In this document: positions 1,472-63,839 of the stretch, in pieces
Position numbering within the stretch: position 1 is the first letter of the stretch
Layout: each line of letters begins with the position of its first letter
Assembly: GCA_963422645.2 (NCBI GenBank)
Contig: CAXXVO010000013.1
Span: 32,001 to 96,000, forward strand
Direction of reading: 5' to 3'
DNA: 64,000 nt
Source: Alphaproteobacteria bacterium
GTDB taxonomy: Bacteria; Pseudomonadota; Alphaproteobacteria; UBA828
Made by a program: the position numbers and the translations under genes
The notes under the pieces: model-generated
The model's input: the letters and a program-made list of their open reading frames with translations, nothing else
Databases searched by the model: none
Told to the model about the DNA's origin: nothing

Positions 1472-1564
1472 ACGCGCGCGGCCGTCGGCCGGAAACGGCT
1501 GGACGGATCGCCTAATTGCTGGCTTGCTTCGCTTCGGCTCTCGACAACGAAGAGGACACATCCC

Positions 1565-2896
1565 GTGGCCCTAAGTGACGCGCGCGGCGTGGCGACATCG
1601 GCGACCAACCCCAAGAGCCTGGAGACTCTGGAAGCGGCGATACGACAGTTCCAGTGCTATCGCGGCGATGCGGTCGAGACCATCGACCGGGCGCTGGCAG
1701 ACGACGCGGACTTCGTGGCGGGGCATATCTTCCGCGCCGAGATGCACACCATGCTCTGGGAGAGGACCGTGCTCCCCGAAGTCGAGGCGGAGCTCGGCCG
1801 CCTGAATGAGCTCACAGGCAAGGCCACGGAGCGCGAACGGGCCCATATCGCGGCGATTGCGGATTGGGCCGCCGGCGACTGGGACGGGATGTCGGCACGG
1901 CTCGACCGGATCGTCGCCGACGAGCCGCGCGATGTGGTGGCGCTCCAGGTCGGCCATCTCTCCGACTTCTTCCTCGGCAACCGGGACAACCTGCGCGGCC
2001 GCGTCGCCCGCGCGCTCCCGGCCTACACCGGAGACGACCCCGGCTACGGCTTCCTGCTCGGCATGGCCGCATTCGGCCTGGAAGAATGCGGCGACTACGG
2101 CGCGGCGGAGGACGCCGGCCGGCAGGCCATCGACCTGGAACCGGACGACTGCTGGGCGCAGCATGCGCTCTGCCACATCATGGAGATGCAGGCACGGCAG
2201 GAGGAAGGCATCGCCTTCATGGAAGGGCGCCGGGCCCACTGGGCGCAGGACGACAATGGCTTCGCCTTTCATAACTGGTGGCACGTCTCCCTCTTCAACC
2301 TCGACAACGATCGCTTCGACCGCGCGCTCGAAATCTGCGACGCGGCGATCCGGCCCGGGTCTTCGGAGGTCCAGCTGGAGATGCTCGATGCGGCCGCATT
2401 GCTCTGGCGCCTCCGCCTGCGCGGGATCGACACGGGCGATCGCTATGAGAAGCTGGCCGCGACTTACGAGGCGTTGGCCGAGCACGGCTTCTACGCGTTC
2501 AACGACATGCACGCGATGATAGCCTACGTCGCCACCGGCCGGGACCAAGCCGCCGATTCGCTGGAGCGGGCGGCGGCAGAGGTGGCGCAGGGCACGGGCA
2601 GCAACGCCCGCATGACCCGCGAGGTGGGGCTCCCCATCGTGCGTGCGATCCGCGCCTTCGGCGCCGAGCGCTATGGCGAGACGGTGGACCTGCTGATGCC
2701 CGTGCGCTACCGCGCGCAGGCCTTCGGCGGCAGCCACGCCCAGCGCGACATCGTCCACCGCACGCTGATCGAGGCGGCGATTCGCGCAGGCCAGCACGGC
2801 CTCGCGCAAGCGCTCGCGAACGAGCGCATGTCGTTGAAGCCGGACTGCCCCTTCAGCCGCTCACTTGGAGAGCGCGCCAGAGCGTTGACGAATTGA
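1565..2896 (+). CDS. TTC38-like tetratricopeptide repeat protein
   Basis: 443 aa; GMAAFGLEE, DCWAQHALCH, HNWWH and GGSHAQRD motifs of the TTC38 family; RBS GAGGA. Confidence 0.8.
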   Translation: MALSDARGVATSATNPKSLETLEAAIRQFQCYRGDAVETIDRALADDADFVAGHIFRAEMHTMLWERTVLPEVEAELGRLNELTGKATERERAHIAAIADWAAGDWDGMSARLDRIVADEPRDVVALQVGHLSDFFLGNRDNLRGRVARALPAYTGDDPGYGFLLGMAAFGLEECGDYGAAEDAGRQAIDLEPDDCWAQHALCHIMEMQARQEEGIAFMEGRRAHWAQDDNGFAFHNWWHVSLFNLDNDRFDRALEICDAAIRPGSSEVQLEMLDAAALLWRLRLRGIDTGDRYEKLAATYEALAEHGFYAFNDMHAMIAYVATGRDQAADSLERAAAEVAQGTGSNARMTREVGLPIVRAIRAFGAERYGETVDLLMPVRYRAQAFGGSHAQRDIVHRTLIEAAIRAGQHGLAQALANERMSLKPDCPFSRSLGERARALTN

Positions 2897-3082
2897 CGCG
2901 GTGACCGACCTCACCGGCTCGCGGCAGTCCCAACGACAACCCTCTCCCCCTGTGTACGCCTCTAAGTGCATCGTCGATGCTAATACACTGAAGTAGCGGT
3001 TCTATTTCCTCTTGTTGGGCCGAAAGATGCGGAATCGGTCCGCGTTTTCTCTCCGGCTGCAACAAATCGCAGGAGGAATTTC

Positions 3083-3315
3083 ATGCCAACGCTTCGCCTC
3101 GTCGAACGCCGTATCCTCGCGCTTAAGCCTCGCAAGTCTGCCTGCGACATCCGCGGCCGCGAGACTCCGCCGGCTGGGCGAGGTGCCGGCACGCCATGAG
3201 CCCGATCAGCCACAGGTCGTGGCGATCATACGCCGACACTTGCTCACCGGATGCCGCAAGAGCGAGATTGTAACCTCAAAGACGTATGCTCAACGTATGC
3301 TCAACCTTGCGAGAA
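3083..3315 (+). pseudogene. Heavily deleted tyrosine integrase remnant
   Basis: AGGAGG RBS then MPTLRLVERRILALKPRKSACDIR (Arm-binding-like N-terminus), LLTGCRKSEI (catalytic Arg box) and a TYAQ..LAR segment resembling the YAHL tyrosine motif, in broken frames. Confidence 0.6.
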
Positions 3316-3383
3316 GACATCGGCGGACGAGTCGCATGACCACCAATGTGCCCGAATGAATCGCTCCTAGTCAGCGGCATCGG

Positions 3384-4028
3384 ATGACCCTCTCATATAC
3401 GTCAGGCGAGAAGATCGCGGACACGGCGGTCCATGCGGTCGGCATCGCTGCAAGCATCGCGGGACTGACGATGCTGGTGATCGTCGGAAGCCGCTACGCC
3501 GGCGCCCTCCCCGTCACGACCTATGCGATCTACGGCGGCTCGGTGCTCCTGATGATCACCATCTCGGGCCTCTACCATTGGATCACCCACGCGCCGGTCA
3601 AGTCTGTGTTCCGCGTGATGGATCACTGCGCGATCTACTTGCTCATTGCCGGTACATACACTCCGGTGACGCTGCTCAGCATACGAGGAGCCTGGGGCTG
3701 GACTCTGTTCGGCGTCGTATGGGGTATCGCCATCGCCGGCGTACTGGTGAAGACGCTTCTCGTCGGCCGCTTCGAGCGCTTGTCCATCGGCCTCTACGTT
3801 CTGCTCGGCTGGGTCGGCCTGATCGGCCTGGGCCCGTTGATTGAGCATCTCTCATGGCCCGCCCTTGCGCTATTCGGCAGCGGCGGCTTGCTGTTCAGTG
3901 TCGGAGTACTGGTATTTTATAGGTGGCACAGGCTTCCCTATCACAATCTCCTCTGGCATCTCTTTGTCCTGGCGGGCGCGATGACGCACTACTTTGCGAT
4001 CATCTATTTTGTGCACCCCGTGATCTGA
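3384..4028 (+). CDS. Hemolysin III / PAQR family membrane protein
   Basis: SGLYH, DHCAIYLLIAGTYTP and HNLLWHLFVL motifs. Confidence 0.9.
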   Translation: MTLSYTSGEKIADTAVHAVGIAASIAGLTMLVIVGSRYAGALPVTTYAIYGGSVLLMITISGLYHWITHAPVKSVFRVMDHCAIYLLIAGTYTPVTLLSIRGAWGWTLFGVVWGIAIAGVLVKTLLVGRFERLSIGLYVLLGWVGLIGLGPLIEHLSWPALALFGSGGLLFSVGVLVFYRWHRLPYHNLLWHLFVLAGAMTHYFAIIYFVHPVI

Positions 4029-4134
4029 ATGCTGGTGCGCGGAATACCTCTAATCCCTCAACTGAGGTGGCCCCGGAAAATCGGACAGGTCGCTCAGGAG
4101 TATTCCACCCTCTGACGGCGTGGGCGCGGGCGGA

Positions 4135-5838
4135 TCATGGCGACAGGCGCATCCCGTCGGCGATCTTCTCGGCGATGGCGATTGTCGTGAGGTTCGTGTT
4201 GGCGCGCGGGATGGTCGGCATCACCGACGCATCCACGACCCTGAGGCCCTGTACGCCGCGTACGCGGCATTCGCCGTCGAGCACCGCCAGCGGGTCGGCG
4301 TCCGGGCCCATGCGGCAGGTTCCGCACACGTGCCAGCCGGGCCAGACGGCGCTCTTGATCCAGTCCGCAAGCGCGCTCTCGTCCTTGACCAGGCGATGTA
4401 CATCCCGGCCGCCGGTGAGCTTGCGCCTGAGCAGTATCCGGCCCGGCCCGCCGAGATCGAGAAGCGTGCGTGCTGCGGCGGTCTTCAGCCATGTCCCCGC
4501 CGAAGGCACCATCAACCGGCGGACGGCGTCCGAGTAGCCTGCGAGGAACCACATCGTCACCTGATCCCGGACGGCGCCGGATTCCATGATGGCGTAGAGG
4601 CGGCGGAAGCCGTCGACCAGGCGCACGAGATCGCGCTCGTCCGAGAGCATGTTGAGATCGACGCGTGGCTCGTCGTGCGGCGAGGGCGTGTGAAGGCGCA
4701 CCGTGCCCCGCGAGTAGGACTTGTTGACCGCCAGGAGCATCGTGCCCATCGCCTGGCCGAGCGGATGCCAGCCCGCGGAGTTGGTCGGCATCAAGAGCAT
4801 GTCCCCCGGCGAGCATCCCTGCAGACCGGAGGAAAAACGCGCGCCGAAATAGATGTGGCGGCGCTGCCCGGCAGGCACGCGCGCGCCCGGCTTGAGATGG
4901 GCCGCGGCGCTGACGCTCGCGTGCTCCAGGAGATTGCTGCCGACGCCGGGCAGGTCGGCCACGACCTCGATGCCGTGCGAGCGCAGGTGCTCCGCCGGGC
5001 CGATACCCGCGCGGAGAAGGAGGGCCGGCGAATGAAGCGCGCCGGCGGAGATGATCGTCTCCCGCGCGTCGAAACGGACAGTCTTCCCGTCCCTCACCGC
5101 TTCGACCCCCCGCGCCAGCCCGTCCTCGACGAGGATTCGGGTCACCAGGGTCTCGGCGTGAATGGCAAGATTGCGGCGGCGGCGCGTTGCGGCGTCGAGA
5201 TAGCCGATCGCCGTGGAGACCCGGCGGCCGTACTGGTTGGAGAGCGGAACCGGATAGCAGCCGTCGGCGTCGTCGCCGTTAACATCCTGGGCGAGGGGAA
5301 GGCCGCCCTCCTGCATGGCGGCGAGCGCGGCGCGGCTGAACCCGCCCCAGTCCTTGGGAAACAGGCGGCGCACCGGGATGCGCCCGGCGCTGCCATGGCC
5401 CTCGCCGCTGAAATCCTGATCCCGTTCCAGCTTGTTGAGGTAAGGGAGGAGCCCCGCATGGGACCAGCCCTTGAGCCCCATCTCTTCCCACTCGTCGTAG
5501 TCGCCCTTCATCCCGCGCACGGCGAACTGGCCGTTGATGGACGAGCCGCCGCCCATGACGCGGGCCTGCTCGAAGCGGCTCGGCTTCACGGAAGGATCGG
5601 TTTCGGGCGAGCGGTTGTAGACGCGGAGCTCCGGCCAGTGAAAACGCGGATCGAAGTAGGCGCGCCCCGGATAGCTGTCGAGGATGATGTCGGGCACCTG
5701 CTCGGGCGGCGTGTCGGGCCCCGCTTCGAGAAGGGCCACACGCTTCGCGGGGTCGGCGGAAAGGCGGTGGGCCAGCACCGCGCCCGCCGAGCCGCCGCCC
5801 ACGATGATGGTGTCGAATGCTTCGCCCACTTGCCGCAC
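4135..5838 (-). CDS. GMC family FAD oxidoreductase (choline dehydrogenase-like)
   Basis: GGGSAG FAD motif, GGGSSING, WHVCGTCRMG, LRVVDASVMP..ANTN. Confidence 0.9.
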   Translation of the reverse strand: MRQVGEAFDTIIVGGGSAGAVLAHRLSADPAKRVALLEAGPDTPPEQVPDIILDSYPGRAYFDPRFHWPELRVYNRSPETDPSVKPSRFEQARVMGGGSSINGQFAVRGMKGDYDEWEEMGLKGWSHAGLLPYLNKLERDQDFSGEGHGSAGRIPVRRLFPKDWGGFSRAALAAMQEGGLPLAQDVNGDDADGCYPVPLSNQYGRRVSTAIGYLDAATRRRRNLAIHAETLVTRILVEDGLARGVEAVRDGKTVRFDARETIISAGALHSPALLLRAGIGPAEHLRSHGIEVVADLPGVGSNLLEHASVSAAAHLKPGARVPAGQRRHIYFGARFSSGLQGCSPGDMLLMPTNSAGWHPLGQAMGTMLLAVNKSYSRGTVRLHTPSPHDEPRVDLNMLSDERDLVRLVDGFRRLYAIMESGAVRDQVTMWFLAGYSDAVRRLMVPSAGTWLKTAAARTLLDLGGPGRILLRRKLTGGRDVHRLVKDESALADWIKSAVWPGWHVCGTCRMGPDADPLAVLDGECRVRGVQGLRVVDASVMPTIPRANTNLTTIAIAEKIADGMRLSP

Positions 5839-5947
5839 TCCGAAAACACCCTGGCGGCGCGCCCGACGTCACGTCGAAACGGACCGCGCCATCGGGCTAG
5901 TGTAACGTTCGGCGTGCGCCGTCAAGGTCGTTCACGGCAGGAATTTC

Positions 5948-7213
5948 ATGGCAGCACGAAGAGTCGCGGTCATCGGTGCCGGCGTTGTCGGAACCGTCGC
6001 CGCGTGTTTCCTGAAACGCGAGGGCCACGAGGTCACGCTCTACGACCGTGACGCGCCGGGCTCCGGCGCCTCCTTCGGCAACTCCGGGGTGATATCGCCC
6101 GCCGCCGTGATGCCCGTGGCGACGCCGGGTCTCCTCAGGAAGGTTCCCCGCTGGCTGCTCGACGAGACCGGCCCGCTCTATCTCGATTGGCGCGAGCTGC
6201 CGCGCCTCGTGCCCTGGCTCATCGCCTTCCTGCGCGCGGGCCGCGAAGACAGGGTGCGGGCGATTTCGGCAGCTCTGGCGACACTCAACGGCCCGACTCT
6301 CGATCTGCTCATGCCGCTCCTACACGAAGCCGGCCTCGATGCGCTGGTCCAAAGGAAGGGCATGCTCTACGTCGACCCGATCGGGCAGGAGGGCGTTCGC
6401 GAGAGCCTCTCCGTCTCGCTGCAGCGGGCGGCGGGATACAGGGTCGAGGAGCTCGACGCCGGCGGCCTCCGGGATCTGGAGCCGGCGCTGGCGCCGGGGT
6501 TCGCTTCAGGTGTCTATGTGCCGGCGGCTGCGCATACCGTCGACCCGCACCGCCTCGTCACCGGACTGGCCGAGCATTTCGAGCGCCAAGGCGGGGCGTT
6601 TACACGCGGGCGCGTCGACCGCATCGTGGCGAGGGCCAGAGATCGCGCCGCGGTCGATGTCGGCGGCGAAATCCGCGACTACGACGCCGTCGTCGTGGCC
6701 GCGGGCGTCTGGTCCAAGCCGCTGGTTGCGGGGCTTGGCTATCGCGTTCCTCTCGTGGCGCAGCGCGGCTACCACGTGACCTTCACCAACCCCGGTGTCG
6801 TTCTCAGCAGGGTGGTCCTGCCGGTGGCACTGCCTGCCACCATCGTACCCATGGCGATGGGTATCCGGATCGGCGGCACCGTGGAGTTCGCGCGGGAGAA
6901 CCGGCCCGCCAACCAGAGGCGCGCAGACGCGCTCTGCCGCCACGCCAAGACGACACTTCCCGCGCTTCGCATCGACGAGCGCACGACCTGGATGGGCGAG
7001 CGGCCATGCACGCCGGACAGCCTGCCCGTGCTCGGCCGGGCGCCGCGCCATCCGGCGGTCCTGTTCGCCTTCGGCCATGGGCACCAGGGGGTCATCGGCG
7101 CCGCGAAGACCGCCGAGGTGATTGCCGATCTCGTCGCGGAGCGGGCGCCGAGCCTCGATCTCGCGCCCTTCGATGTGGGGCGGTTCAGGCTGCTAGAGCG
7201 CGTCCGTCGTTGA
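5948..7213 (+). CDS. FAD-dependent D-amino acid dehydrogenase (DadA family)
   Basis: GAGVVG, ASFGNSG, QRGYH, WMGERPCTPDSLP, FGHGHQG. Confidence 0.85.
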   Translation: MAARRVAVIGAGVVGTVAACFLKREGHEVTLYDRDAPGSGASFGNSGVISPAAVMPVATPGLLRKVPRWLLDETGPLYLDWRELPRLVPWLIAFLRAGREDRVRAISAALATLNGPTLDLLMPLLHEAGLDALVQRKGMLYVDPIGQEGVRESLSVSLQRAAGYRVEELDAGGLRDLEPALAPGFASGVYVPAAAHTVDPHRLVTGLAEHFERQGGAFTRGRVDRIVARARDRAAVDVGGEIRDYDAVVVAAGVWSKPLVAGLGYRVPLVAQRGYHVTFTNPGVVLSRVVLPVALPATIVPMAMGIRIGGTVEFARENRPANQRRADALCRHAKTTLPALRIDERTTWMGERPCTPDSLPVLGRAPRHPAVLFAFGHGHQGVIGAAKTAEVIADLVAERAPSLDLAPFDVGRFRLLERVRR

Positions 7214-22648: not shown

Positions 22649-23773
22649 ATGGCCGCCATCCTCGAAATCCAGAATGTCACGAAGACCTTCCGCGGCGGCG
22701 TGCGCGCCGTGGACGACGTGACGCTCGCGGTCGAGGAAGGCGAGTTCCTGACCATTCTCGGGCCTTCCGGCTGCGGCAAGACCACCACGCTCCGCATGGT
22801 GGGGGGCTTCGAGTATCCCGATGCAGGGCGCATCGTGCTCGACGGGCGCGACGTGACCGACCTCCCGCCATACCGGCGGCCGGTCAACATGATGTTTCAG
22901 GACTTCGCGCTCTTTCCCCACCTCACGGTGGCGCAGAACATCGGCTATGGCCTCGCCATCGCCGGCATGAAAAAGCGCGAAGCGGCGCGCGAAGTGGAGG
23001 AGGCGCTCGGCACGATCGAGCTGCTCGACAAGGCCGATCGACGGCCAGCGGAGCTTTCCATCGGCCAGAAGCAGCGCGTGGCCCTCGCCCGCGCCCTGAT
23101 CCGGCGGCCGAAGATACTGTTGCTCGACGAGCCGCTGTCGGCGCTCGACGCCAAGCTCCGTGAATCGATGCAGGTGGAACTCAAGCGCCTGCACGACCAG
23201 ATCGGCCTCACCTTCATGATGGTCACCCACGATCAGACCGAGGCCCTGGTGATGTCCGACCGGATCGTGGTGATGGATACCGGGCGCATCGTGCAGGCGG
23301 GCACACCGACGGACCTCTACGACCGACCCGAGACACCCTACGTCGCGAACTTCCTCGGCACCTCCAACATGGTTGCCGGCACCGTGACCGGGACGGCGGA
23401 CGGCACCGCGCAAGTGAGTTGCGGCGCTGCGGATATCAGCGTCGCGCTCCAGGGCGCCGCGCCGGCGGTGGGTGCCCGGGTCACATTATCGATCCGGCCC
23501 GAGAAGGTGGTGCTCAGCGGCGGAGCCGAGCTGCCGGCCGGGTTCAACAGCCTCTCCGGCCAGCTTCGCGATGTCTTCTTCCACGGCGATTCCGTCAGGC
23601 TCGCCATCGATATCGGCGCCGAGCGGCTGCTCATCGTGCACCGCCAGCTCGAAACCGGGCTCCAACAGATGCCGCTGCCGCCGGTGGGCGGCACGCTCTC
23701 CCTCGGCTTCGATCCGGCGAGCGTGATCCTCTTCGCAGGCTCCGGCGACGCATCGGCGGACAGCGCCGAATGA
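22649..23773 (+). CDS. Polyamine-type ABC ATP-binding protein (PotA-like)
   Basis: GPSGCGKTT, LSIGQKQR, LLLDEP, C-terminal TOBE-like region. Confidence 0.9.
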   Translation: MAAILEIQNVTKTFRGGVRAVDDVTLAVEEGEFLTILGPSGCGKTTTLRMVGGFEYPDAGRIVLDGRDVTDLPPYRRPVNMMFQDFALFPHLTVAQNIGYGLAIAGMKKREAAREVEEALGTIELLDKADRRPAELSIGQKQRVALARALIRRPKILLLDEPLSALDAKLRESMQVELKRLHDQIGLTFMMVTHDQTEALVMSDRIVVMDTGRIVQAGTPTDLYDRPETPYVANFLGTSNMVAGTVTGTADGTAQVSCGAADISVALQGAAPAVGARVTLSIRPEKVVLSGGAELPAGFNSLSGQLRDVFFHGDSVRLAIDIGAERLLIVHRQLETGLQQMPLPPVGGTLSLGFDPASVILFAGSGDASADSAE

Positions 23774-24506
23774 GGTACGCCCGGCGTCGCCGGCTCGAAT
23801 TCGCCGCCCTCGTCTCGGCACCTGTGATCTGGTGGGTCGTGGTCCTGTTGGTGCCTTACATTATCATGCTGATGATCAGCTTCTACCGGACGCAGTTTCC
23901 CTTCCACGTCCCCGATTTACAGGTTGCCAACTATCTGAAAATATTCGCCGAATCGCAGTACGTCACGATCCTTCTGCGCAGCCTGAAGATCTCGATCTTC
24001 GTCTCCATCGTGACCTTCGCGCTGGCCTACCCGCTGACCTATTTCCTGGTCTTCAAGGTGCGCTCGCCACGCGTCAGGACGATCATCTACGTGGCCACTA
24101 TCGTCCCGCTCTGGGTCTCCTACCTGCTGCGCGTTTACACCTGGAAAATCGTGCTCGGCACCGAGGGGATCCTGAACACCTTCCTGATCTGGATCGGCGT
24201 GGTGAACGAGCCGATCGAGGTGCTCATCTACAACCAGTTCGCCATGGTGATCACGATGGCGTACATCTTCACGCCCTTCATGGTGATGCCGATCTACGCG
24301 ACGCTGGAGAAGATCCCGCGCAGCCTGATCGAGGGCTCCAAGGACCTGGGCGTCGGTAATATCGGCACCTTCCTGCGCATTACGCTGCCGCTCTCGGTGC
24401 CGGGCATTCTGGTGGGCTTCACCTTCACCTTCTGCTTCTCGTTCGGCGACTTCATCTCGCCGCGATTGGTGGGCGGGCCCTACTCCAACATGATCTCCAA
24501 CGTGAT
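23770..24506 (+). pseudogene. PotB-like ABC permease, 3'-truncated by the mobile element
   Basis: PLWVSYLLR, IEGSKDLG..ITLPLS, GDFISPRLVGG; homology stops at NMISNVI exactly at the TGT end (24507); last TM helix and potC/potD absent. Confidence 0.8.
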
Positions 24507-24651
24507 TGTAGACGGACGAAAGTCGTTGTGAATCGGGTCAAGGGGTGGAATCAGGCGGAATCGGGCGGAAGGTGGCGGAATCTCAAGGGGATGCGGGGCG
24601 GCACGGTGGCGGTGCGGCGGCTGGCGTGCGGACGGAAGTCTTTGCGAATCG
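24507..24651 (+). repeat. Left end: terminal repeat plus spaced internal copy (putative transposase sites)
   Basis: CGGACG(A/G)AAGTC(G/T)TTG(T/C)GAATCG at 24513-24535 and 24629-24651. Confidence 0.8.
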
Positions 24652-24926
24652 GGCCGTGCAGAGGCCGTGAATTGGCTGGAAACGGCAATTTTCGGGGCGT
24701 TTCAGGGGTCTTGCGACGGCGGCAAATCGGGTCGGTTTCGGGGTATCGGATTCGGCTGGAAAATCCGGTGCGTGGCGCCCGTCCCGCGAGGCTGGCGGCG
24801 GCCCGCGCCGGGGCGCTGAATCGGCTTGAGATGGCGTGCGGCGGCGCGTAGGGTGAGCGTGGCGTCGGAAGCAGCAGTCCTCTCATGCCTTCGGGCGAGC
24901 GCGGGGTTTGCGACCCGCCCGGCGCC

Positions 24927-25664
24927 TCACTTCCCATCCCTCCTGATCGGCCCGAAGCGTCGCCTTGTGACATCGAGGTCAGCGGCCTTCGACCTGTGCA
25001 GGCTCACGATGTAGGCCTCGTCGCCACCTGCGGCCGACTTGACGACGGCCTTCCACAGGCGCCCGTCCTCTTCGAGGAAGCCCTGCGCGAAACGGCCGTT
25101 GTCCTCCACGAACATCTCCCCTTGATCGAGGATGCGCTGGAGGCGGGCGTAGTCTGCGGGTTCGAGATCGGGGTGTCGCCTGGCCTGCTTTGCGGCGGTT
25201 TCTGCGGAGAGGCGGGCGGTTCGGGAGCGTGCGCCGATGGCGGCCATGACCGGGCCTCCGAGCACGGCCGCGGGCCAGTCGGCGTCGGACCGGCCTTCGA
25301 GGTGGCGGCGGAAGAGCGCGCCGTTCCAGGGTTGGCCTATGGCGGCGCGTGCGAGGTCGGGGGGCGCGTCGTCGATCTTCTCGATCAGGCGGTTTGCGCT
25401 GTCGCGGCCCGGCCGGGCGCGGCCGGCGTTGTGCTGGAAGCCGGGATCGATGCCGGCGGGGACCTGGTGGATGCGGCCGGTGCGGCGGTTCTTCCAGGGC
25501 CTGGTGCGCCCGGAGCCGGGCGGCGGACCCTCGGACACCTTGTATCCGTAGCGTTCGAGGTCGTCGTCTCCGAGCTGCTGGACGATGCAGCGGCACTTCC
25601 ATCCGTTGGGCGGGTAGTGGGTCTTCCAGAAGGGGTGATCGACGGGGAGCACGGTGCCGTGCCA
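24927..25664 (-). pseudogene. 5'-truncated phage MuF/SPP1 gp7-like minor head protein with C-terminal PBECR-like nuclease domain
   Basis: WHGTVLPVDHPFWKTHYPPNGWKCRC, VPAGIDPGF; C-terminal KQARRHPDL..DY..AVVK..E.YIVSLHR; N-terminus replaced at 25665 by the inner element end. Confidence 0.75.
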
Positions 25665-25765
25665 TGTGAGCGTGCGCCCAGCATTTGATGGTGCGGTTTT
25701 CGGATTATTTGATGTTCGTGATGCGGCGCTTGGTTGATCTGCGAGAGCGGTGAGTGGCCTGGCTT

Positions 25766-26635
25766 TCATCGAGACCGCAGGAGCATCTCGTTCCAGTCCT
25801 TGGCGTGTCGTGGGCGCAACCTTTTCACCCTTGGATCGTTGAGCACGAGATGCTCGGCGGCAGTGTCGCCGGCGCTGTCTGCGTCGTAGGCACAGACGAT
25901 GCGACGTGGCTTCCACTCCTTGATCCAGGGCGGGACCGAGCTGGCGATGCCGGCGGTTGAGGCGACGACGGCGCCGTTCTCGCGCGTCCCCTCGACGCGC
26001 AGGCTTCGTGCAGAGATGGCGTCGACGGCGCTCTCGGTGAGGATGACGAGGGCGGGCTGGTTTCGGTCGCAGTGGAGCCAGAAGCCGCCACGCGCCTTGC
26101 GCGATCCCGGGGCCATGCCCCTGAAGCGTTTTGTTCCGGGCTGCGGCGCGGTGCCGAGGATCTCGGCGCCGGTCGTGTGCCCGCTGGCGTTTCGGCAGAT
26201 GAAGACGGCGTTGATCCTGTCATCGGCGTAGAGGAGGCCTCGGCCGTGGCAGGCTTCGAGCACGTCGGTGCCGATAGCGCGTTGGCGGATGAGGGCGTCC
26301 CGGACCCTGGGCCAGGCGCGGGGACTGGGCCTTGGCAGCCGCAGGCGTCGCGGGGCGGCTGGGATGGTGGTGATCTCCCTCCGCCCCTCATGGCTTCCGA
26401 GGAAGCGGAGGGCTTCCGGGAAGCGGCATCCCGTCGCATGGATGACGAGGTCGATGGCGCCACCCCCTCCCGTGCCGCGCAGGTGATCGAAGAACTTCTC
26501 GCCGTTGATGCTGATGACCGAGCCCCCGCGCTTGAAGCGCGCCCGGTCGGTCGGGTCTCTGCGGTAGCCGAGGGCGGCGGCGACCCGGTCGAGGGGGATG
26601 TTGCGGCAGGTGGCCAGGGGATCGCCGCCGCTCAT
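25766..26635 (-). CDS. DUF3991/Toprim-domain primase-like protein
   Basis: KFFDH..GGGGAIDLV N-terminus; Toprim LTESAVDAIS and AYDADSAG; KDWNE. Confidence 0.8.
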   Translation of the reverse strand: MSGGDPLATCRNIPLDRVAAALGYRRDPTDRARFKRGGSVISINGEKFFDHLRGTGGGGAIDLVIHATGCRFPEALRFLGSHEGRREITTIPAAPRRLRLPRPSPRAWPRVRDALIRQRAIGTDVLEACHGRGLLYADDRINAVFICRNASGHTTGAEILGTAPQPGTKRFRGMAPGSRKARGGFWLHCDRNQPALVILTESAVDAISARSLRVEGTRENGAVVASTAGIASSVPPWIKEWKPRRIVCAYDADSAGDTAAEHLVLNDPRVKRLRPRHAKDWNEMLLRSR

Positions 26636-26676
26636 TGCCGGGTCCCGGCGAAGGTCTGCTTGGAAGGGAGGCTGAC

Positions 26677-26737
26677 GGCGTTCCCGTTCCTGTACCCTTC
26701 AACGCTTAAGAGTTCCGGGAACGGGAACGGGAACGCC
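26677..26737. repeat. 14-bp perfect inverted repeat with GGGAAC iterons (putative replication origin)
   Basis: GGCGTTCCCGTTCC (26677-26690) / GGAACGGGAACGCC (26724-26737); GGGAAC x3 at 26717-26734; lies between helicase and primase genes. Confidence 0.65.
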
Positions 26738-27736
26738 TCATCCCGCACTTCCGTTGATGGCGGCAGGGGATTGCGGCTCCCGGTGCGCCTCGGCGGCTGC
26801 GAGGCGATAGCCACCCCTGGGCGCCCGTTCGATGCGCCCCTCCCTGGTGAGGCTCTCGATGGCGGCAACGACGGTGGCGTTGCGGGCAGCGGCGCGTGAG
26901 CGGATCTGGGCTTTCGAGAGCGGCTTTTCGGCCTGCTCGATCGCCTTGAAGACGCGCTGCTCGACGGTGGCGGGCTCGTGCCTGTCTTCATCTGCCGCGT
27001 CCTGGTGCAGACGGAAGGCCGGCCCATGTCCGCCGTCGACGAGTTCCAGCTCGATGTCGTTGAGGCCCCGGGCGTCGCGCTGCTCGACCGTCATGACGAT
27101 CTTCTTGTCGCGCCGGCGCAGGTACAGATTTGAGTCACCCCAAGCGTGCAGCTCGCTGCTCCCGCGCAGGGCCTGCCCCGGCCGGGTGCCGCCGCTCTTG
27201 CGGGCGTGGTGGACGAGGAGGACGGCGGTTTCGAAGCGGCGCTGCAGTTCGCGCAGGAAGCCGAGGATGGGGGCGATCTCTGCGACGGCGTTCTCGTCGA
27301 CGCTGTGCAGGCGGACCAGGGGATCGAGGATCAGGAGGCGCGGTTCGATGCGCTCCACGGTCTGCTGCAGGCGTTGACGGTCGCCGGGCCGGTCGAGACG
27401 CAGGGTGGGCACGTCGATGACGGCGATGTCGAGTTCGTCGAAGGGGGTGGCGGCGGCGCGGGCGATCCCCTGCAGACGCTTGCGCACCCTGTGGCCGGCG
27501 TCCTCGGCGGCGAAGAGCAGCACGGTGCCGCTTGCGCTGGGGCGGTAGTGGCGCAGGCATGGGACGCCGGTGGCCACGGCGACGGCGAGATCGAGCGCGA
27601 GCAGGGATTTGCCGCACTTGGGCTCGCCGCCGACGATGCCCACGGCCTGCTCGGCCCACAGCGTGTCCACCATCCACTGTTGCGCCCGGGGGCGATCCTC
27701 GAGCTGCATCGGCGCCCGTGTCGGGAAGCCCTTCAC
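26738..27736 (-). CDS. AAA_25 / RepA-like RecA-fold helicase with C-terminal wHTH-like region
   Basis: GGEPKCGKS, FAAED, LLILDPL, LVHHARK, LRGSS; GTG at 27736 overlaps the ExeA stop (GTGA). Confidence 0.82.
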   Translation of the reverse strand: MKGFPTRAPMQLEDRPRAQQWMVDTLWAEQAVGIVGGEPKCGKSLLALDLAVAVATGVPCLRHYRPSASGTVLLFAAEDAGHRVRKRLQGIARAAATPFDELDIAVIDVPTLRLDRPGDRQRLQQTVERIEPRLLILDPLVRLHSVDENAVAEIAPILGFLRELQRRFETAVLLVHHARKSGGTRPGQALRGSSELHAWGDSNLYLRRRDKKIVMTVEQRDARGLNDIELELVDGGHGPAFRLHQDAADEDRHEPATVEQRVFKAIEQAEKPLSKAQIRSRAAARNATVVAAIESLTREGRIERAPRGGYRLAAAEAHREPQSPAAINGSAG

Positions 27737-28566
27737 CGCCGTGCCCTCTTCGGCTTGGCGGGCTCGCCCAGGATCTCCATGAAGAGCTTCTCGTCGAGAA
27801 CCTCGCGGTTCTTCTCGGCGCCGGCGGCGAGCAGCATGTCGCCCATGACGGTAAGCGCCCTGGGGTTGCCGCCGGCGTGGGTGACCAGGGTGTCCTTGAG
27901 CTCTGCGCTCATGAGGCCCGGATTGCCGGCCTGCTCGACCAGATGGTCGAGCAGGGCCGCGAGGTCGCCGGCGTCTGCCTGGGTCATGACCAGGCGCTGG
28001 CGCAGGCGCGAGGCGATGGGCTGCAAGTCGGGCTGGCGGAGCCTGTCGATCAGGCGGCTGTCGCCGGCGAAGACGACCGAGAGGATGGCGCGCGAGTCGA
28101 AGTCGGTGGACGCCAGCAGGCGGATCTCGGAGATCACCGAGGGCAGCAGCTCCTGGGCCTCGTCGATGAGCACCACGGGCCGCATGCGGGTGTCGTCGAC
28201 ATGGGTGAGCCATCGCTCGCGCAGGTTTTTGAAGCTGGCCCAGCGGTTGTTGTACATCAGGTCGACGCCGAACATCCCGCCGATCTCGCGGTAGAAGTCG
28301 GACAGCCTGGAAGAGGGGTGGGTGATGGCACAGACCCTGAGCCCGTCCGAGCGGCCGAGGCGGTCGGCGAGCACGCGCAACGCCACGCTCTTTCCGGTGC
28401 CGGGCTCGCCGGCGATCAACGCGAAGCCGCCCTGGCGCACAAGATGATGCTCGATTCTGAGGCAGAAGCTGTCGACGGCGGGGCTCACCATGAGGCTGTC
28501 GACCGGAAGGTCGGTGGCGAAGGGGTTCCATTTGAGCCCGTAGAAGGTGAGCAGCTCGCGGTTCAT
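27733..28566 (-). CDS. ExeA-family AAA+ ATPase (transposition helper)
   Basis: FYGLKWNPF, GEPGTGKS, VLIDEAQ, GGNPRAL; directly downstream of the transposase. Confidence 0.88.
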   Translation of the reverse strand: MNRELLTFYGLKWNPFATDLPVDSLMVSPAVDSFCLRIEHHLVRQGGFALIAGEPGTGKSVALRVLADRLGRSDGLRVCAITHPSSRLSDFYREIGGMFGVDLMYNNRWASFKNLRERWLTHVDDTRMRPVVLIDEAQELLPSVISEIRLLASTDFDSRAILSVVFAGDSRLIDRLRQPDLQPIASRLRQRLVMTQADAGDLAALLDHLVEQAGNPGLMSAELKDTLVTHAGGNPRALTVMGDMLLAAGAEKNREVLDEKLFMEILGEPAKPKRARR

Positions 28567-30039
28567 GACGGATCTCCCTGATCGTCGTCCTCGCCCGGAC
28601 CGGGCGTCTTGTTATGGGGTACCCAGGCCGGCGGCAGGCCTGTTGCGGCCTGGGCGTCGAGCACGCCCTTGAGCAGCGGCGGAAGTTCGCCGACGCCCGC
28701 GCTGGCGCCGCCATGGTCGCTGCCGGGTCTCGCAGGACGGCGGACGCCATCGGCGTTGCCGCGCTTGTCGAGGGGGTACAGCGTGCACAGCCGCTCGCCG
28801 CTTCGGCCTTCCACCAGATCGACGCCGCTGAGGTCCCAGCGCGCATAGCGGACCCAGAGCGTCCTCAGGTGGCGCCACGGCTGTGGCACCTGGTAGCGGA
28901 TGCCCCTCGACCGAGACGGTGCCGTCCGAGCGCCTGAGCGTGCGCTTCCTGGCGATGCGGAAGGCCGCCTTGAGCTCGTCCGAGGCGGGGCAGGGCCTCG
29001 ATGCCTTGACGCTCCCGGCGAGGCGTTCATGCGGCGTCATGCCGAGCTCGCGGTGCACCCGCCGATGGTAGTCCTGCTCCAGCCAGGCTATGGTGGCGTC
29101 GTTGAGCATCTTCAGGGTGAGCGCGTCGACGCCTTCGAGCTGAGCCATCAGGCGGCCCTCGACCGTGCCCCAGAACGACTCGATTTTTCCATTTTGATGG
29201 GGGCTGTAAGCGAGTGTCGTGGCCCCCACGATGCCGAGGCGGTGCAAGCCCTCCTCGACCTCGCCCGCCGTCATCGGCCCGCCGTTGTCGGTCAGCAGGG
29301 ACCTGGGCAAGTCCCTCTTCATGAAGGCCTGACAGAGCCCGTGGACGAAGACCTCGGCGGTCTCCTCCAGGTACCACTGCAGGTGGCAGCCAAGCCTGGA
29401 GTGGTCGTCGAGGAAGCCGAGCAGGATGGGCGTCTGCCATTCGCCCGACGCCGTCAGCACGCGGCGCTTGCCGTGGTGGAAGTCCCCGTGCCACAGCGCG
29501 TGACTGCGAGACACCTCGTAGCTAAGGACCTCGCGGGCTTCGACCGCCGGCTTGTCCTCACCCTCGTGCCACTTCCTGGGGCGCTCGCGCACCAGGCCGC
29601 GATTGCGCATCGCCCGCGTCAGCGTCGCGTAGGACGGCATCGGGCCGAGCTCGGGATGGGTCGCAACATGAGCCTTGAGGGTCTCGTAGTGGAGCTGCGC
29701 CGCCCACGAGGGATGGACCCGGTACTGCTCGCGCAGCGCCGCGATCAGCCCCGCCGACATGGACCGCTCGCGGCCGACGTCGGTCCGAGGCTTCCGGCGC
29801 AGCGCCTTGACCGGGTCCTGCTCCTCTGCCCGCGCCCGGTAGTACCAGCGCTCGATCGTCGAGGCCGCAAAGCGCACCGGCCCCTTGCCCGACGGGTGCT
29901 CCCAGTCGCGCTGCGACAGACGCTCGAACTCGGCCCCCAGCTGGCCTGCAGGCGGCGGTGAAGCCAGAAGCGGCCCCACCACCGCAAAGCGCAGCCGGGC
30001 CCACTTCTCGCGCCTGGCGCCTGCGTCGTCCTTGTCCAT
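28563..30039 (-). pseudogene. DDE (rve) transposase with Mu-transposase-like C-terminus; +1 frameshift at 28903-28906
   Basis: WHGDFHH, LDDHSR, LTDNGG, QNGKIESFW; frame switches DGTVSVEG to IRYQVP..VRYARWDLS at a G4 run; may be intact if this is a sequencing error. Confidence 0.85.
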
Positions 30040-30088
30040 TCCGGCATCCCTCCCTCGCCGCATCGGAGAGATGCCCATGTAGAACGCC

Positions 30089-30505
30089 CTATCCGGGCGT
30101 GACAGGAACACTTTCTGCGGGCGGCGCCGAGCCATCGCCGAGCCCGCAATAGCCCGTCCACGGCTTGAACCAGATCAGGCTCAGGAACAGACGCTCACCG
30201 AAGCGTCCGCCCCGCATCTGCCGCAGCACGAAGAGCAGCGGCACCTCCTCGGGTGGCATCACCAGTTCGCCACGCTTCGCTCCCCAGGGCTCCGTCGCCG
30301 GGAACGCCTCCAGCCACCACTTCCGCCAGCGGCGCAGTGTGGCGACCGAGACCCCCCACTTCCGCTTGATCGTCTGCAACCGCACCCCGCCTCTCAGAAC
30401 CAGTGCACTCAACAGAACGAACAGGGCGCCCAGATAAAAGCGGCGCCCGAAGAATCGTACCGATGGTGGGGTCGCTCGCAGGCGGCAATCCGCGCAGCAG
30501 AAGCT
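30089..30505 (-). pseudogene. 5'-truncated Cys-rich/HTH accessory gene upstream of the transposase
   Basis: Extending ORF 30089-30412 upstream gives SFCCADCRLRATPPSVRFFGRRFYLG...VATLRRWRKWW, then a stop at 30506-30508; no start codon for the N-terminal part. Confidence 0.6.
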
Positions 30506-30507
30506 TC

Positions 30508-30843
30508 ATGCTCCAGGCCCTGCTCCCGCCCGCGCTGGAGGCGCTCACCTGGCGATGCACCGTCGCGGCAGAGCCCTGCGGACGCTGCCCCCGATGCCGC
30601 CTCAACGCCTTCTTCGAGCGCTTCTGCCGGGGACGCCCGGCGGACCAGGTCGCCCGCATCGACGACGCCCTCGAACGACACCGCGGCGCAGGCCGATGGT
30701 ACGCCGACGCCGACCCCGGAAGATGGACCGATCACGACGGATACGACGCCGCAGAACGCGCCGTCGAAGACCCCGAATGGTGGAAGGCCGAACTCGAACG
30801 CCCGTGCCGCCCCGGCGCCCGCCCCGGTCCCGACCGCGCCTGA
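30508..30843 (+). CDS. Hypothetical 111-aa protein with CxxCxxC, possibly a gene remnant of the outer element
   Basis: MLQALLPP...CGRCPRC...WWKAELE; starts exactly at the junction with the inner element. Confidence 0.35.
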   Translation: MLQALLPPALEALTWRCTVAAEPCGRCPRCRLNAFFERFCRGRPADQVARIDDALERHRGAGRWYADADPGRWTDHDGYDAAERAVEDPEWWKAELERPCRPGARPGPDRA

Positions 30844-30963
30844 AACCCCCACGCACCGCCCGTGCACGGGCCCCGAAACCCCCGCGCAGCGCTCCTTCAT
30901 GGCCCATGCACAGGCCGGTTTTTCCAGCCCGGTTCAGCCCCGAAAACCAGCCGATTTTCCAGG

Positions 30964-31015
30964 CCATTCGCAAAGACTTCCGGCCGCGATTCGCAAAGAC
31001 TTTCGTCCGGCTACA
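30964..31015 (-). repeat. Right end: two tandem putative transposase sites plus terminal ACA
   Basis: TTCGCAAAGACTT at 30967 and 30990 (23-bp period), ending CTACA at 31015. Confidence 0.8.
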
Positions 31016-31230
31016 ATGGTGACCCTCTCGCCCCGAATGTGGATCTCGCCACTATCCATGCGGTAGGCGCCGGCGAGAATTTTGATAAGCGTGGATTTGC
31101 CGGCGCCGTTGTGGCCGACGACGCCGAGCACTTCGCCGCCCGCGACCGCGACGGAAACATCCTCGACCGCGTGGGTGCCGCCGAAGCTCTTGTAGATGTT
31201 GCGCATCTCGACCAGGGGCGGCGTGGTCAT
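31016..31230 (-). pseudogene. Sugar ABC ATP-binding protein, 5' fragment cut by the element
   Basis: [34 protein letters not shown] then enters the element end; paralog of 9276-10052. Confidence 0.85.
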
Positions 31231-33416: not shown

Positions 33417-34197
33417 TCAGAGAGGCGGAAGGCTCGCGATGAGGCCTTCGTCCGCGACCAGAACGGCGCCGTAGAACGCAGCCGAATCGGCGGTGCAGAG
33501 GAAGAGCGCGGTGTTGGCGATGTCCTCGGGCTCGGCGAAGGCGCGGCCGCTCGGGTTGAGCGTCTCGAAGAGCCGGACCACCTCCTCGTTCTCCGGCTCG
33601 CGCATCCAGGCATTCATCGGCGTGCGCACGTTGCCCGGCGCGATCGCGTTGACGTGGATTCCCTGGCCGGCGAGCTCGGTGCCGAGCGAGCGGGTGAGCA
33701 GGATCACGCCCCCCCTTGCTCGCGGCGTAGGCCGAAGACTGCGCGAGTCCGATGACTCCCGCCACCGAGGCGATGTTGACGATGTGGCCGCCGCCGGCAT
33801 CGACCATGCCGGGCACCACGGCCTGGCAAACGTAGTAGGTGCCCTTCAGGTTGGTGTCGATGATGCGGTCGAAGACGGCGGGATCGCTCTCCGTCACCGG
33901 GTTCGCGTGCCAGATGCCGGCGGCGTTGACCGCGATGTCGACCGGACCGATCTCCTGCGCCGCACGGGCGGCGGCAGCATCCACTGCCGCCGCATCGCTC
34001 ACGTCGGTGACGAGGCTGAGGGCGCGGCCCCCCGCATCGCCAACCTCCTCGACGACCGCTTCCAGCACCGACGCGTCCGCCTTGTCGAGCAGCGCGACCC
34101 CCGCGCCCTCCTTGGCAAAGCGAAGCGCAACGGCACGGCCGATGCCTGAGCCCGCGCCCGTCACCAGAGCCGCACGTCCCTCGAGCCTCACCGCCAA
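33417..34197 (-). pseudogene. SDR oxidoreductase with +1 frameshift at the C7 run 33709-33715
   Basis: TGAGSGIG, NAAG, YAASKGG then VILLTRSLG..VNAIAPG in the next frame; probably a sequencing error. Confidence 0.8.
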
Positions 34198-37720: not shown

Positions 37721-38526
37721 TGGATCGGCTCGCCCGCAGGCTGCTGCCCGCGCGGCCCGACGCGACGGCTCTCGCCATCGCCGGCACGCCTGAGGACACG
37801 CTGGAGGCCTTCGACGTGACCGTCCACTTAGAGGGGCTCGCGGCTGTCGACGGGGTCTCGATCTCGATGAGGCACGGCGAGGTCTTTGGCCTGATCGGCC
37901 CGAACGGCGCCGGCAAGACCACGCTGGTCAACGTGCTCACCGGCTTCCAGCGCCCGACCCGCGGGCGGGTCGTCCTGGGCGGCGAGGACGTGACCGGGCT
38001 TTCCGCGCACGAGCTGGGCCGCCGTGGCCTCGCCCGCACCTTCCAGGCGGTGCGGCTCTTCCGCGACATGCCGGTGATCGAGAACCTGGAGGTCGCGGCG
38101 GTGGGTACCGGGCTCGGCCGCCGCGAGGCCGCGCGCCGTGCCTCCCGCATTCTCGCCTGGATGAAGTTCGCGCACAGGGCGGACGACTGGGCGGACACGC
38201 TGCCCTACGGCGACGAGCGCCGGGTCGGCATCGGCCGCGCGCTCGCCATGGCGCCCCGCTTCGTGCTGCTGGACGAGCCGGCGGCGGGCCTGAGCGACGC
38301 CGAGTGCGACGAGCTCATGGGGCTGATCGCAGAGATCCCGGAGGTCTTCGGCTGCGGGGTGCTGCTGATCGAGCACAACATGCGCGTAATCATGGGGGCC
38401 TGCGATCGCATCCACGTGATCGAGAGCGGGCGCACGGTCGCCGAAGGGCCGCCGGAGGAGATCCAAGCGAACCCCGACGTGCTCCGCGCCTATCTGGGGA
38501 CCAAGTCGGTCGATGCTGGAAGTTGA
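37717..38526 (+). CDS. LivG-like ABC ATP-binding protein
   Basis: GPNGAGKTT, ARTFQ, LLDEPAAG, IEHNM; ATG at 37717 overlaps the LivM stop. Confidence 0.9.
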   Translation: MMDRLARRLLPARPDATALAIAGTPEDTLEAFDVTVHLEGLAAVDGVSISMRHGEVFGLIGPNGAGKTTLVNVLTGFQRPTRGRVVLGGEDVTGLSAHELGRRGLARTFQAVRLFRDMPVIENLEVAAVGTGLGRREAARRASRILAWMKFAHRADDWADTLPYGDERRVGIGRALAMAPRFVLLDEPAAGLSDAECDELMGLIAEIPEVFGCGVLLIEHNMRVIMGACDRIHVIESGRTVAEGPPEEIQANPDVLRAYLGTKSVDAGS

Positions 38527-39254
38527 GGACCTGCACGTCCGCTACCGGCGGCTCCGCGCGGTGCGCGGCGTCTCGCTCACGGTCGGCGAAGGCGAAATGG
38601 TGTGTCTGGTGGGCCCCAACGGCGCCGGCAAGTCGAGCACGCTGCGCAGCATCGCGGGCCTGCACCCGCCGGCCGAGGGCGACATCAGGCTGGCCGGCCG
38701 CTCGGTCACGGGTCTTGCGCCGGAGACCATCGCGCGCCTGGGGCTTTCCATGGTGCCGGAGGGACGCCACGTCTTCACCCAGCTCACGGTGGAGGAGAAC
38801 ATCCTGCTGGGCAGCCAGATGCGGCGCGACCGCAAGCAGGTGCGGGCCGACTTCGAGCGCATGCTGGAAAGCTTCCCCTTCCTGCGCGGGCGCCTTGCCA
38901 CCCCCCGGCGGCAAGCTCTCCGGCGGCGAGCAGCAGCAGCTGGTCATCGCCCGCGCGCTGATGACGCGGCCCCGGCTGATCCTGCTCGATGAGCCCTCCC
39001 TCGGCCTCGCGCCCATGGTGGTGGACACCGTCTACGAGATCCTCAAGGGGCTGCGGGACGAGGGCATCACGCTGCTGGTGGTCGAACAGAGCACCCACCG
39101 GGCGCTGGAGAACGGCGATCGCATCTACATCATCCGCTCGGGCCAGATCGAGCTCGAAGGCGAGTGCAGCGCGCTCACCGACGAGCGCGTCGAGCAGGCC
39201 TACTTCGGCTTCGACCAGACGGAAGCCGAAGCCGACCACCGAACCCGATTCTGA
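38513..39254 (+). pseudogene. LivF-like ABC ATP-binding protein with +1 frameshift at the C6 run 38901-38906
   Basis: GPNGAGKSS, VPEGR in one frame; LSGGEQQ, LDEPSLGLAP in the next; probably a sequencing error. Confidence 0.85.
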
Positions 39255-63153: not shown

Positions 63154-63839
63154 GAGAGCGCCCCCACCAGGTGATCGAACATGGGGCGTCCGTCGGCGCC
63201 GCCCAGCGCAGGCTCCGCGGCGCGCTCGGGATGCGGCATCAGGCCGAGCACCGTGCGTGCCGGATTGAGGATGCCCGCGATATCGGCGGCGGAGCCGTTG
63301 GGGTTGGCCTCGCCATCGGCCGCGCCGTCGCCCCCCACGTAGCGGAAGGCGACCAGCCCCTCGCCTTCGAGCCGGGCCAGCGTCTCCTCATCGGCGCAGT
63401 AGTTGCCCTCGTGATGGGCGACCGGCATCCGCACCACCTGGCCGGCCTGGTAGCCGGCGGTGAACGGGCTCGCGGCCTCCTCGACGCGCAGGCTCACCCA
63501 GCGGCAGACGAAGCGGAGCCCCGCGTTGCGCATCAGCGCGCCGGGCAGCAGCCCCGCCTCGGTCGCCACCTGGAAGCCGTTGCAAATGGCCAGGACATGC
63601 ACGCCCTCCTTCGCCCGCTTCACCACGTCCACCATCACCGGCGAGCGCGCCGCCATGGCGCCCGCGCGCAGGTAGTCGCCGTGGGCGAAGCCGCCGGGCA
63701 GCACGATCAGGTCGCAGGCGGGCAGCACGCTCTCGTCGTGCCAGACCAACGCCGGCGCCCGGCCCGTGCTGGCCTCCAGCGCCACCTCGACATCCCGGTC
63801 GCAGTTGGAGCCGGGAAAGACGATGACGGCGGCCTTCAT
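63150..63839 (-). CDS. purQ: Phosphoribosylformylglycinamidine synthase subunit PurQ
   Basis: FPGSNCD, ICNGFQ, NPNGS, MPHPER. Confidence 0.98.

Follow-up and report, generated by a model that had tools for sequence, protein, structure and literature searches.

A probable decayed Mu-type prophage shell enclosing a broken Tn6049-kind transposon in an alphaproteobacterial genome

In phage Mu, the transposase MuA binds the sites L1-L3 and R1-R3 at the phage ends, HU acts in the spacer between L1 and L2, and insertion makes 5-bp duplications. Mini-Mu elements made in the laboratory, like other non-autonomous derivatives that arose by deletion, keep both ends but have lost the transposition genes, and they could move only in trans. 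Here we describe positions 24507-31015 of a 64,000-nucleotide stretch of DNA from an Alphaproteobacteria bacterium (contig CAXXVO010000013.1, positions 32,001 to 96,000; hereafter the window), a 6.5-kb segment that we read, with a probability of roughly 0.7, as the decayed, non-autonomous shell of a Mu-type prophage in which a broken transposon of the Tn6049 kind lies nested. Tn6049 of Cupriavidus metallidurans CH34, compared here as locus L001, is described as a 3.5-kb element present in 12 copies, all with a 'gspA' ATPase (PMC2864759); its inverted repeats are given as 12 bp long and its direct repeats as 4 bp (PMC4739549). The segment comprises two nested elements, an inner one at 25667-30505 and an outer shell made up of 24507-25666 and 30506-31015. 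It is a relic and no new kind of element, both of its parts fitting known kinds.

The two ends of the shell carry sites of the same sequence family in different arrangements:

24507-24698, plus strand: attL-type end module, with L1, five phased GGAAT-like repeats, L2 and a subterminal stretch resembling the right end
24507-24535: site L1, starting with TGTAG (core 24518-24533)
24623-24651: site L2 (core 24634-24649)
30844-31015, minus strand: attR-type end module, with R1 and R2 in tandem at 23 bp and two CTGGAAAA motifs further in
30964-30992: site R2 (core 30966-30981, minus strand)
30987-31015: site R1 (core 30989-31004, minus strand)

The outermost sequences (24505-24535 and 30987-31017) form a terminal inverted repeat of 31 nt that is 90% complementary. 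When the 16-nt core GGAAGTCTTTGCGAAT was searched for in the 64-kb window with up to 3 mismatches, five matches were obtained, four of them the claimed sites and the fifth, at 63572, a match with 3 mismatches; shuffled controls gave a mean of 0.21 matches, and none of 100 shuffles reached five. The sites are spaced 116 bp apart at the left end and 23 bp apart, in tandem, at the right end. Between L1 and L2, five GGAAT-like repeats follow one another at intervals of 10-11 bp (24547-24592, at positions 41, 51, 61, 71 and 82 from the terminus), and further in, 24629-24698 matches 31009-30937 at 77%, the similarity between the left and right ends stopping at 24698. Any role of the phased repeats in the function of this end would be one suggested by their resemblance to known ends. 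The subterminal motif CTGGAAAA is not significant by count (3 matches, a number reached in 15 of 100 shuffles) and the 9-mer GGCGGAATC is common in the window, with 46 matches, such that both motifs are notable by position and phasing only. Because this arrangement follows the known end layout of Mu, we designate 24507 as the attL-type and 31015 as the attR-type terminus. By analogy with Mu, L1, L2, R1 and R2 (22-29 nt) are predicted to be binding sites of a MuA-type transposase, which is absent here.

Two gene fragments lie between the end modules and the inner transposon:

24927-25664, minus strand: 3' fragment of a Mu-type F (gp30) head-morphogenesis gene, 245 codons (phrog_220, E 3.4e-34)
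30506-30843, plus strand: 3' fragment of a phage-type QueC-like (PP-loop) gene, reading outward to the right end

The F fragment opens abruptly at WHGT, adjoining the terminus of the inner transposon, and aligns with the F protein (409 aa) of an Azospirillum argentinense prophage, located on plasmid p3, over residues 157-399, with 109 of 247 positions identical (44%). This prophage carries a MuA-like transposase, an AAA ATPase (MuB-like), GemA, Gp27, terminase, a DUF935 portal, protease and gpT. A tblastn search of phages with the F fragment matched 239 records, 24 of them covering at least 80% of the fragment; among the matches listed, F of Mu and of SuMu cover 90-94% and F of B3 covers 77%. 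The closest long homologue, from a search that spanned 430-2000 aa only and left relatives of normal length (~410 aa) outside its range, is P0020, at 55% identity. P0020 is a single 594-aa open reading frame (ORF) that fuses Gp27, Portal_Mu and MuF pieces and has the appearance, in another genome, of a Mu head module in collapse through in-frame deletions.

At attR, the QueC-like fragment faces outward, as is canonical, and it is identical in 67 of 73 positions to residues 176-248 of P0010, a protein recorded on a different contig. The stretch in common begins at FMLQ, residue 181 of P0010, which is exactly the joint at 30505/30506. The first 262 of the 375 residues of P0010 resemble viral QueC-like proteins, and the evidence for this (an atlas score of 0.96 to viral QueC clusters and phrog_1550 at E 3e-4) amounts to leads, not family-level matches.

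P0010 and a second protein record, P0019, also mark the edges of the end modules. In another frame, P0010 remains 94% identical across R2 and R1, and the divergence sets in precisely behind ...CGTCCGGCTACA, at the terminus 31015. P0019 is identical in 47 of 47 residues to the frame over 24551-24694, which spans L2, and then diverges at ~24694; beyond this point an unrelated N-terminal gene piece is fused at the inner edge of the end module, and the break coincides with the stop of the left/right end similarity (~24694-24698). This read-through and divergence of P0010 and P0019 indicate that the ends are real element boundaries. No meaningful family match was found for P0019, and for its N-terminal piece there is a lead towards a D12-methylase, from one atlas match at 0.90 only. 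Since both end modules recur on other contigs, the end family is multi-copy; the sister copies have both end modules in common, and their flanks or interiors differ. Cluster mates of P0010 occur on several contigs, as 120-aa forms with one common internal deletion and as 43-aa truncated forms. In two diverged variants of the 120-aa form, P0013 and P0014, the QueC-like gene has lost the same internal stretch; the contig given for each of them has a length of 361,970, and the 43-aa forms are found on contigs of four different lengths.

The interior of the segment is occupied by the second element, whose genes were called from GC content at third codon positions (GC3 phase) together with family scans (Pfam, NCBIfam, PHROG):

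25667-30505, minus strand: inner Tn6049-family transposon, distal terminus TGAGCGTGCGCCC intact at 25667, proximal 352 bp missing
25766-26635, minus strand: DUF3991 + Toprim (primase-like) gene (Pfam DUF3991 1.7e-10, Toprim_2 3.3e-9)
26738-27736, minus strand: RepA-like (AAA_25) helicase gene (Pfam AAA_25 1.1e-35; RSF1010 RepA structure 1G8Y, E 1.9e-8)
27733-28566, minus strand: AAA_22 ATPase gene, MuB/GspA-ExeA-like (Pfam AAA_22 6.2e-19; phrog_296 'DNA transposition protein')
28563-30135, minus strand: DDE (rve) transposase gene (Pfam rve), likely start 30039, frameshifted
30089-30505, minus strand: small Cys-rich/HTH gene, 5'-truncated (Pfam HTH_23), homologue of a 181-aa gene upstream of the Tn6049 transposase

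A genome scan with the inner transposase yielded 95 stretches, 49 relatives and 47 loci. Positions 25666-30505 of the window match positions 353-5176 of a complete element in one of these loci, L008, at 83.8% nucleotide identity. At 30505, within the small Cys/HTH gene, similarity to the relatives breaks off sharply, and at the other side the TGAGCG terminus at 25667 abuts the F fragment. The L008 element, a unit of 5,176 bp (1516-6691) with the Toprim gene inside it, has CCGGT on both sides. OZ224045.1, a chromosome of 2.57 Mb from a metagenome-assembled genome (MAG), has 14 loci of a 4,383-bp unit (in L009, 9200-13582) that is ~99.9% identical between copies; these units end in TGAGCGGGCGCAGG... 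and ...GAGAGCACACTCA, and 4-6 bp direct repeats were found in all 10 copies inspected. A second MAG has four loci with a common 4.4-kb unit. The TGTAG-site motif of the shell had no match in 46 of the 47 relative loci, and its one match, in the distant locus L046, has 3 mismatches and no partner and looks like chance; in L001-L007 the motif was absent even when up to 6 substitutions were allowed. Because the duplication-bounded units of the relatives end in TGAGCG and lack the shell motif, we conclude that the inner element is nested in the shell.

Several claims of the original prediction, an earlier note made on this DNA, are borne out by these results. The asymmetric Mu-type ends it had proposed, tandem at 23 bp on one side and spaced at 116 bp on the other, are confirmed by the site search and the shuffles. 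The only transposase does belong, as it had stated, to an inner element with other ends, as seen from the TGAGCG-ended relatives and the break at 30505. Scans of 24507-31015 found no transposase cognate to the shell, again as proposed, and the view of the shell as the remnant of a transposable phage is supported. The arrangement that it had named as contrary to it, with the shell ends flanking DDE/ExeA genes elsewhere, was not encountered in the related loci. Its MuF-like gene beside the left end proved to be MuF-like, but what is present is only a 3' fragment (residues 157-399).

The shell retains an attL-type end, an attR-type end, the 3' 60% of F and the 3' portion of a QueC-like phage gene. 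Its history could have begun with the insertion of a Tn6049-kind transposon into F at about codon 157; an inversion may then have put the 3' end of F beside the attL module, and a single deletion may have extended from within the transposon to within the QueC-like gene. If the lineage had its ends arranged the opposite way, two deletions could have taken place instead. Deletion, probably along with inversion, would have taken away the remainder of the prophage and the transposon's first 352 bp, and a frameshift would have broken the transposase. The position of a head gene at the shell terminus is probably the product of such a deletion or rearrangement. The shell could be mobile only if an intact relative supplied a MuA-type transposase in trans.

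The sequences immediately around the ends and next to F enter into the weighing of this reading:

23419-24506, plus strand: left flank, ABC permease gene truncated by the shell (Pfam BPD_transp_1, profile positions 11-133 of 184)
24699-24926, no strand: gap between the end module and the F stop, 228 bp, no recognisable gene
31016-31230, minus strand: right flank, N-terminal stub of a different ABC ATPase gene (Pfam ABC_tran, profile positions 2-58 of 137)

A number of observations speak against a Mu-type prophage shell. There is no 5-bp target duplication at the termini, where GTGAT precedes TGTAG on the left and ATGGT follows CTACA on the right, and the flanks belong to two different truncated ABC genes. 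F points at the attL-type end, its stop codon 420 bp from the terminus, in an orientation opposite to that in Mu and the Azospirillum prophage, such that at least two rearrangements must be assumed. In this copy, the Pfam, NCBIfam and PHROG scans detected no MuA or MuB and no Mu gene besides the F fragment. No full-length relative with these ends was recovered, and DNA searches for the shell ends among phages and plasmids were negative, returning the conserved F motif or chance matches only. Finally, the QueC-like and D12-methylase-like labels rest on weak sequence matches and are to be taken as leads only. The missing duplication and the mismatched flanks could reflect recombination between copies, an adjacent rearrangement or assembly collapse, and the gap at 24699-24926 possibly harbours a deletion or rearrangement joint. 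ORFs in 24528-24973 and 30403-31022 gave nothing usable in the Pfam, NCBIfam and PHROG scans, and a tblastx comparison of both end regions with the Azospirillum prophage produced only high-GC compositional noise, which was discarded. The ORF of the left-flank permease, as listed, probably starts (23419) upstream of the true start of the gene. Further gene fragments are present in the window at 33417-33800 and 38513-38992, namely the C-terminal part of a short-chain dehydrogenase and an incomplete ABC ATPase; pseudogenes appear to be numerous in this genome.

We weighed four other explanations for the segment. That the absent duplication and the discordant flanks are an assembly artefact, two shell copies having been collapsed into one, is unlikely; this would concern the flanks only and is compatible with a prophage shell. 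It would explain why two different truncated ABC genes meet the shell without a duplication, and the end modules are indeed multi-copy in related contigs, but within the 64-kb window the ends and both elements occur only once, and the other truncated genes at 33417-33800 and 38513-38992 make real decay and rearrangement plausible. The original prediction had favoured an unusual or satellite-like element with its head gene natively at the terminus, and we regard a compact satellite-like or mini transposable element of this kind, with an F-type head gene native to one end, as distinctly unlikely. The stop of F only 420 bp from the terminus, without another gene remnant between them, is what such an element would show, as is the recurrence of both end modules on other contigs, and hence the multi-copy end family. 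Against it stands the state of F, of which only a 3' part is left, interrupted by the inner transposon at about codon 157 and pointing at attL; moreover, P0019 has a different gene fused at ~24694, so the interior beside this end varies. Both the helicase and the primase-like gene, which might hint at a satellite, lie inside the inner transposon and are carried by its duplication-bounded relatives, and no integrase, packaging gene or transposase belonging to the shell was found by Pfam, NCBIfam or PHROG.

We consider it very unlikely that the shell is instead left over from a Tn7-, Tn552- or Tn5053-like transposon of non-phage origin, which would have lost a TnsB/TniA-like core and kept phage-derived cargo. 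Its termini do begin with TGT, its ends are multi-site, tandem on one side and dispersed on the other in a layout that is typical of Tn7 too, and neighbouring genes resemble DNA-modification cargo. The phased repeats between L1 and L2, however, are shared specifically with the attL of Mu and of one Mu-like prophage, the sole clearly assignable shell gene is a Mu-type F, and no Tns or Tni gene is present according to the Pfam and NCBIfam scans. An extremely improbable alternative is that the whole 6.5 kb forms one Tn6049-like transposon with TGTAG ends, its cargo being the helicase, the primase-like gene and the F fragment. The gene order beside the right end (small gene, DDE, AAA_22) does mimic that of Tn6049, and the small gene lies at a similar distance from the end, but no credible TGTAG-site motif occurs in the 47 loci with related transposases apart from the partnerless match in L046, a TGAGCG terminus like those of the relatives' units is present inside the window at 25667, and homology to these relatives stops at 30505, inside the small gene. 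The TGTAG ends had been entertained as the DDE transposase's own ends, given that the genes are ordered as in Tn6049 and that AAA_22 and AAA_25 overlap at GTGA; the TGAGCG-ended units of the relatives and the break at 30505 rule this out.

An extension of the prophage-shell reading would place the shell in a natural 'mini-Mu' family, made up of deletion derivatives that are copied in trans by a resident Mu-type phage and multiply like miniature inverted-repeat transposable elements (MITEs). We regard this as doubtful, although hints towards it are given by the common deletion of P0013 and P0014, the recurrent 43-aa forms and the position of the break in P0019. It is equally tentative that the members of such a family would keep only the attL module of ~190 bp and the attR module of ~170 bp.

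With regard to the inner transposon, all genes in 24927-30505, F included, are on the minus strand. A +1 frameshift at four consecutive G (CCCC on the plus strand, 28903-28906) disrupts the DDE gene, and the Tn6049 transposase matches this gene in two different frames, first through residues 8-385 (52.8% identity) and then through 377-473 (44.6%); in L008 the transposase is one open frame of 492 aa. The NCBIfam IS481 model scored 117.6 bits, under its cutoff of 224. Sequence searches of the PDB with the transposase and the AAA_22 ATPase gave no match. The AAA_22 ATPase is 50.6% identical to the Tn6049 ATPase, and the small Cys/HTH gene is 39% identical to residues 69-175 of the corresponding Tn6049 protein. 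From its homology to Tn6049 and to pairs of the MuA/MuB type, the inner family would transpose by means of its DDE transposase and AAA+ ATPase.

The RepA-like and Toprim genes sit inside the duplication-bounded unit. The GTG start of the RepA-like gene overlaps the stop codon of the AAA_22 gene (GTGA), and the gene occurs in 27 of 29 loci with a DDE transposase at least 66% identical, the exceptions, L039 and L040, being fragments. A tblastn search of plasmids with the RepA-like protein gave four distant matches, all at 35% identity or less. Copies of the Toprim gene are present in L008, L023 and L037 (74-82% identity) and in L039 (47%). Ratios of nonsynonymous to synonymous substitution (dN/dS) were 0.34-0.46 for Toprim, 0.23-0.44 for the RepA-like gene and 0.16-0.52 for AAA_22, transposase comparisons with L024 and L026 having been disregarded as frame artefacts; purifying selection on the RepA-like and Toprim genes is similar to that on the core genes. 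The two genes might support replicative transposition. The literature listings contained no description of a transposon that joins a DDE + AAA_22 module to a RepA-like helicase or Toprim gene. Between the RepA-like and Toprim genes, at 26662-26752, there is an imperfect inverted repeat of 36 nt (75% complementary, 19-nt loop).

The loci on OZ224045.1 are L009-L019, L027, L030 and L033, some of them a few kb apart and inverted (L015, L019), and the copies on this chromosome indicate recent transposition bursts. Copies at ~80% nucleotide identity (L020, L022, L037, L038, L040, L053) were found on short contigs of MAGs whose labels are Gemmatimonadota, Acidimicrobiales, Chloroflexota, Gammaproteobacteria and Deltaproteobacteria. 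Behind this distribution lies either extensive horizontal transfer or the misbinning of a high-copy repeat.

As found, the segment represents ordinary genome decay, and the main use of its description is to keep annotators from naming a new kind of element. If such shells do move in trans, they would be a natural example of non-autonomous elements that stem from a transposable phage. The inner family, which combines a MuA/MuB-like module with a RepA-like helicase and in some copies Toprim, suggests the testable idea that the replicative transposition of a DDE transposon may draw on replisome parts which the transposon itself supplies.

Among the described systems, the hallmarks of Tn7-like elements and of phage satellites are missing from the segment: no TnsA, TnsB or TnsC was detected beside the tandem end by Pfam and NCBIfam, the QueC-like fragment lying there instead, and no integrase of a P4-like or PICI-like (phage-inducible chromosomal island) satellite was found by Pfam, NCBIfam or PHROG, the helicase and Toprim genes being those of the inner transposon. 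Mini-Mu elements differ from the shell in that the latter shows no sign of movement since it was gutted and no target duplication; the likeness is that the shell keeps both ends without transposition genes.

For the comparison with Mu we used NC_000929 and the A. argentinense plasmid p3 prophage (NZ_CP032324). At 6.5 kb against ~37 kb, the segment is without A/B, portal, capsid and tail genes: in the 24507-31015 scans the only DDE/AAA+ pair was that of the inner transposon, with no MuA-type transposase and MuB beside attL, and of the Mu head module and tail genes Pfam and PHROG found only the equivalent of F residues 157-399. The shell differs further in its site sequence, CGGACGRAAGTCTTTGCGAAT, in the lack of the 5-bp target-site duplication of Mu, and in its F, which is truncated, inverted relative to the ends and adjoins the attL-type end, whereas in Mu and the Azospirillum prophage F lies mid-genome and is transcribed away from attL. 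The ends, in contrast, are Mu-like in their layout, with TG...CA termini and with sites that are spaced at attL and contiguous at attR. Like Mu and Mu-like prophages, the shell has a terminal site followed by GGAT-like repeats phased at 10 bp and by a second site ~110-120 bp in, and tandem sites 22-23 bp apart at the other end. In the attL of Mu the GGAT series runs in 10-bp steps between L1 and L2, and in that of the Azospirillum prophage the repeats are at 30, 40, 50 and 60, followed by sites at ~120 and ~165; the tandem ends (the right end in the window, the attR of Mu and the attR of the Azospirillum prophage, with its 22-bp period) have no such repeat series. The shell likewise has a Mu-type F, and an outward accessory gene beside the tandem end, where Mu has mom.

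The inner element differs from Tn6049 in its terminal sequences and in that Tn6049 has a 90-aa ORF where the inner family has the RepA-like helicase and, in some copies, DUF3991-Toprim; moreover, this copy is without one end, and its transposase is frameshifted. Two TG-initiated ends with a short target duplication are seen in the intact relatives, and of these features the distal end alone is left here. The gene order of the inner element (small Cys/HTH gene, IS481-like rve transposase, AAA_22) is that of Tn6049, its DDE transposase and AAA_22 'GspA' ATPase are 52.8% and 50.6% identical to their Tn6049 counterparts, and its family is alike in having TG termini and short direct repeats at the insertion sites.

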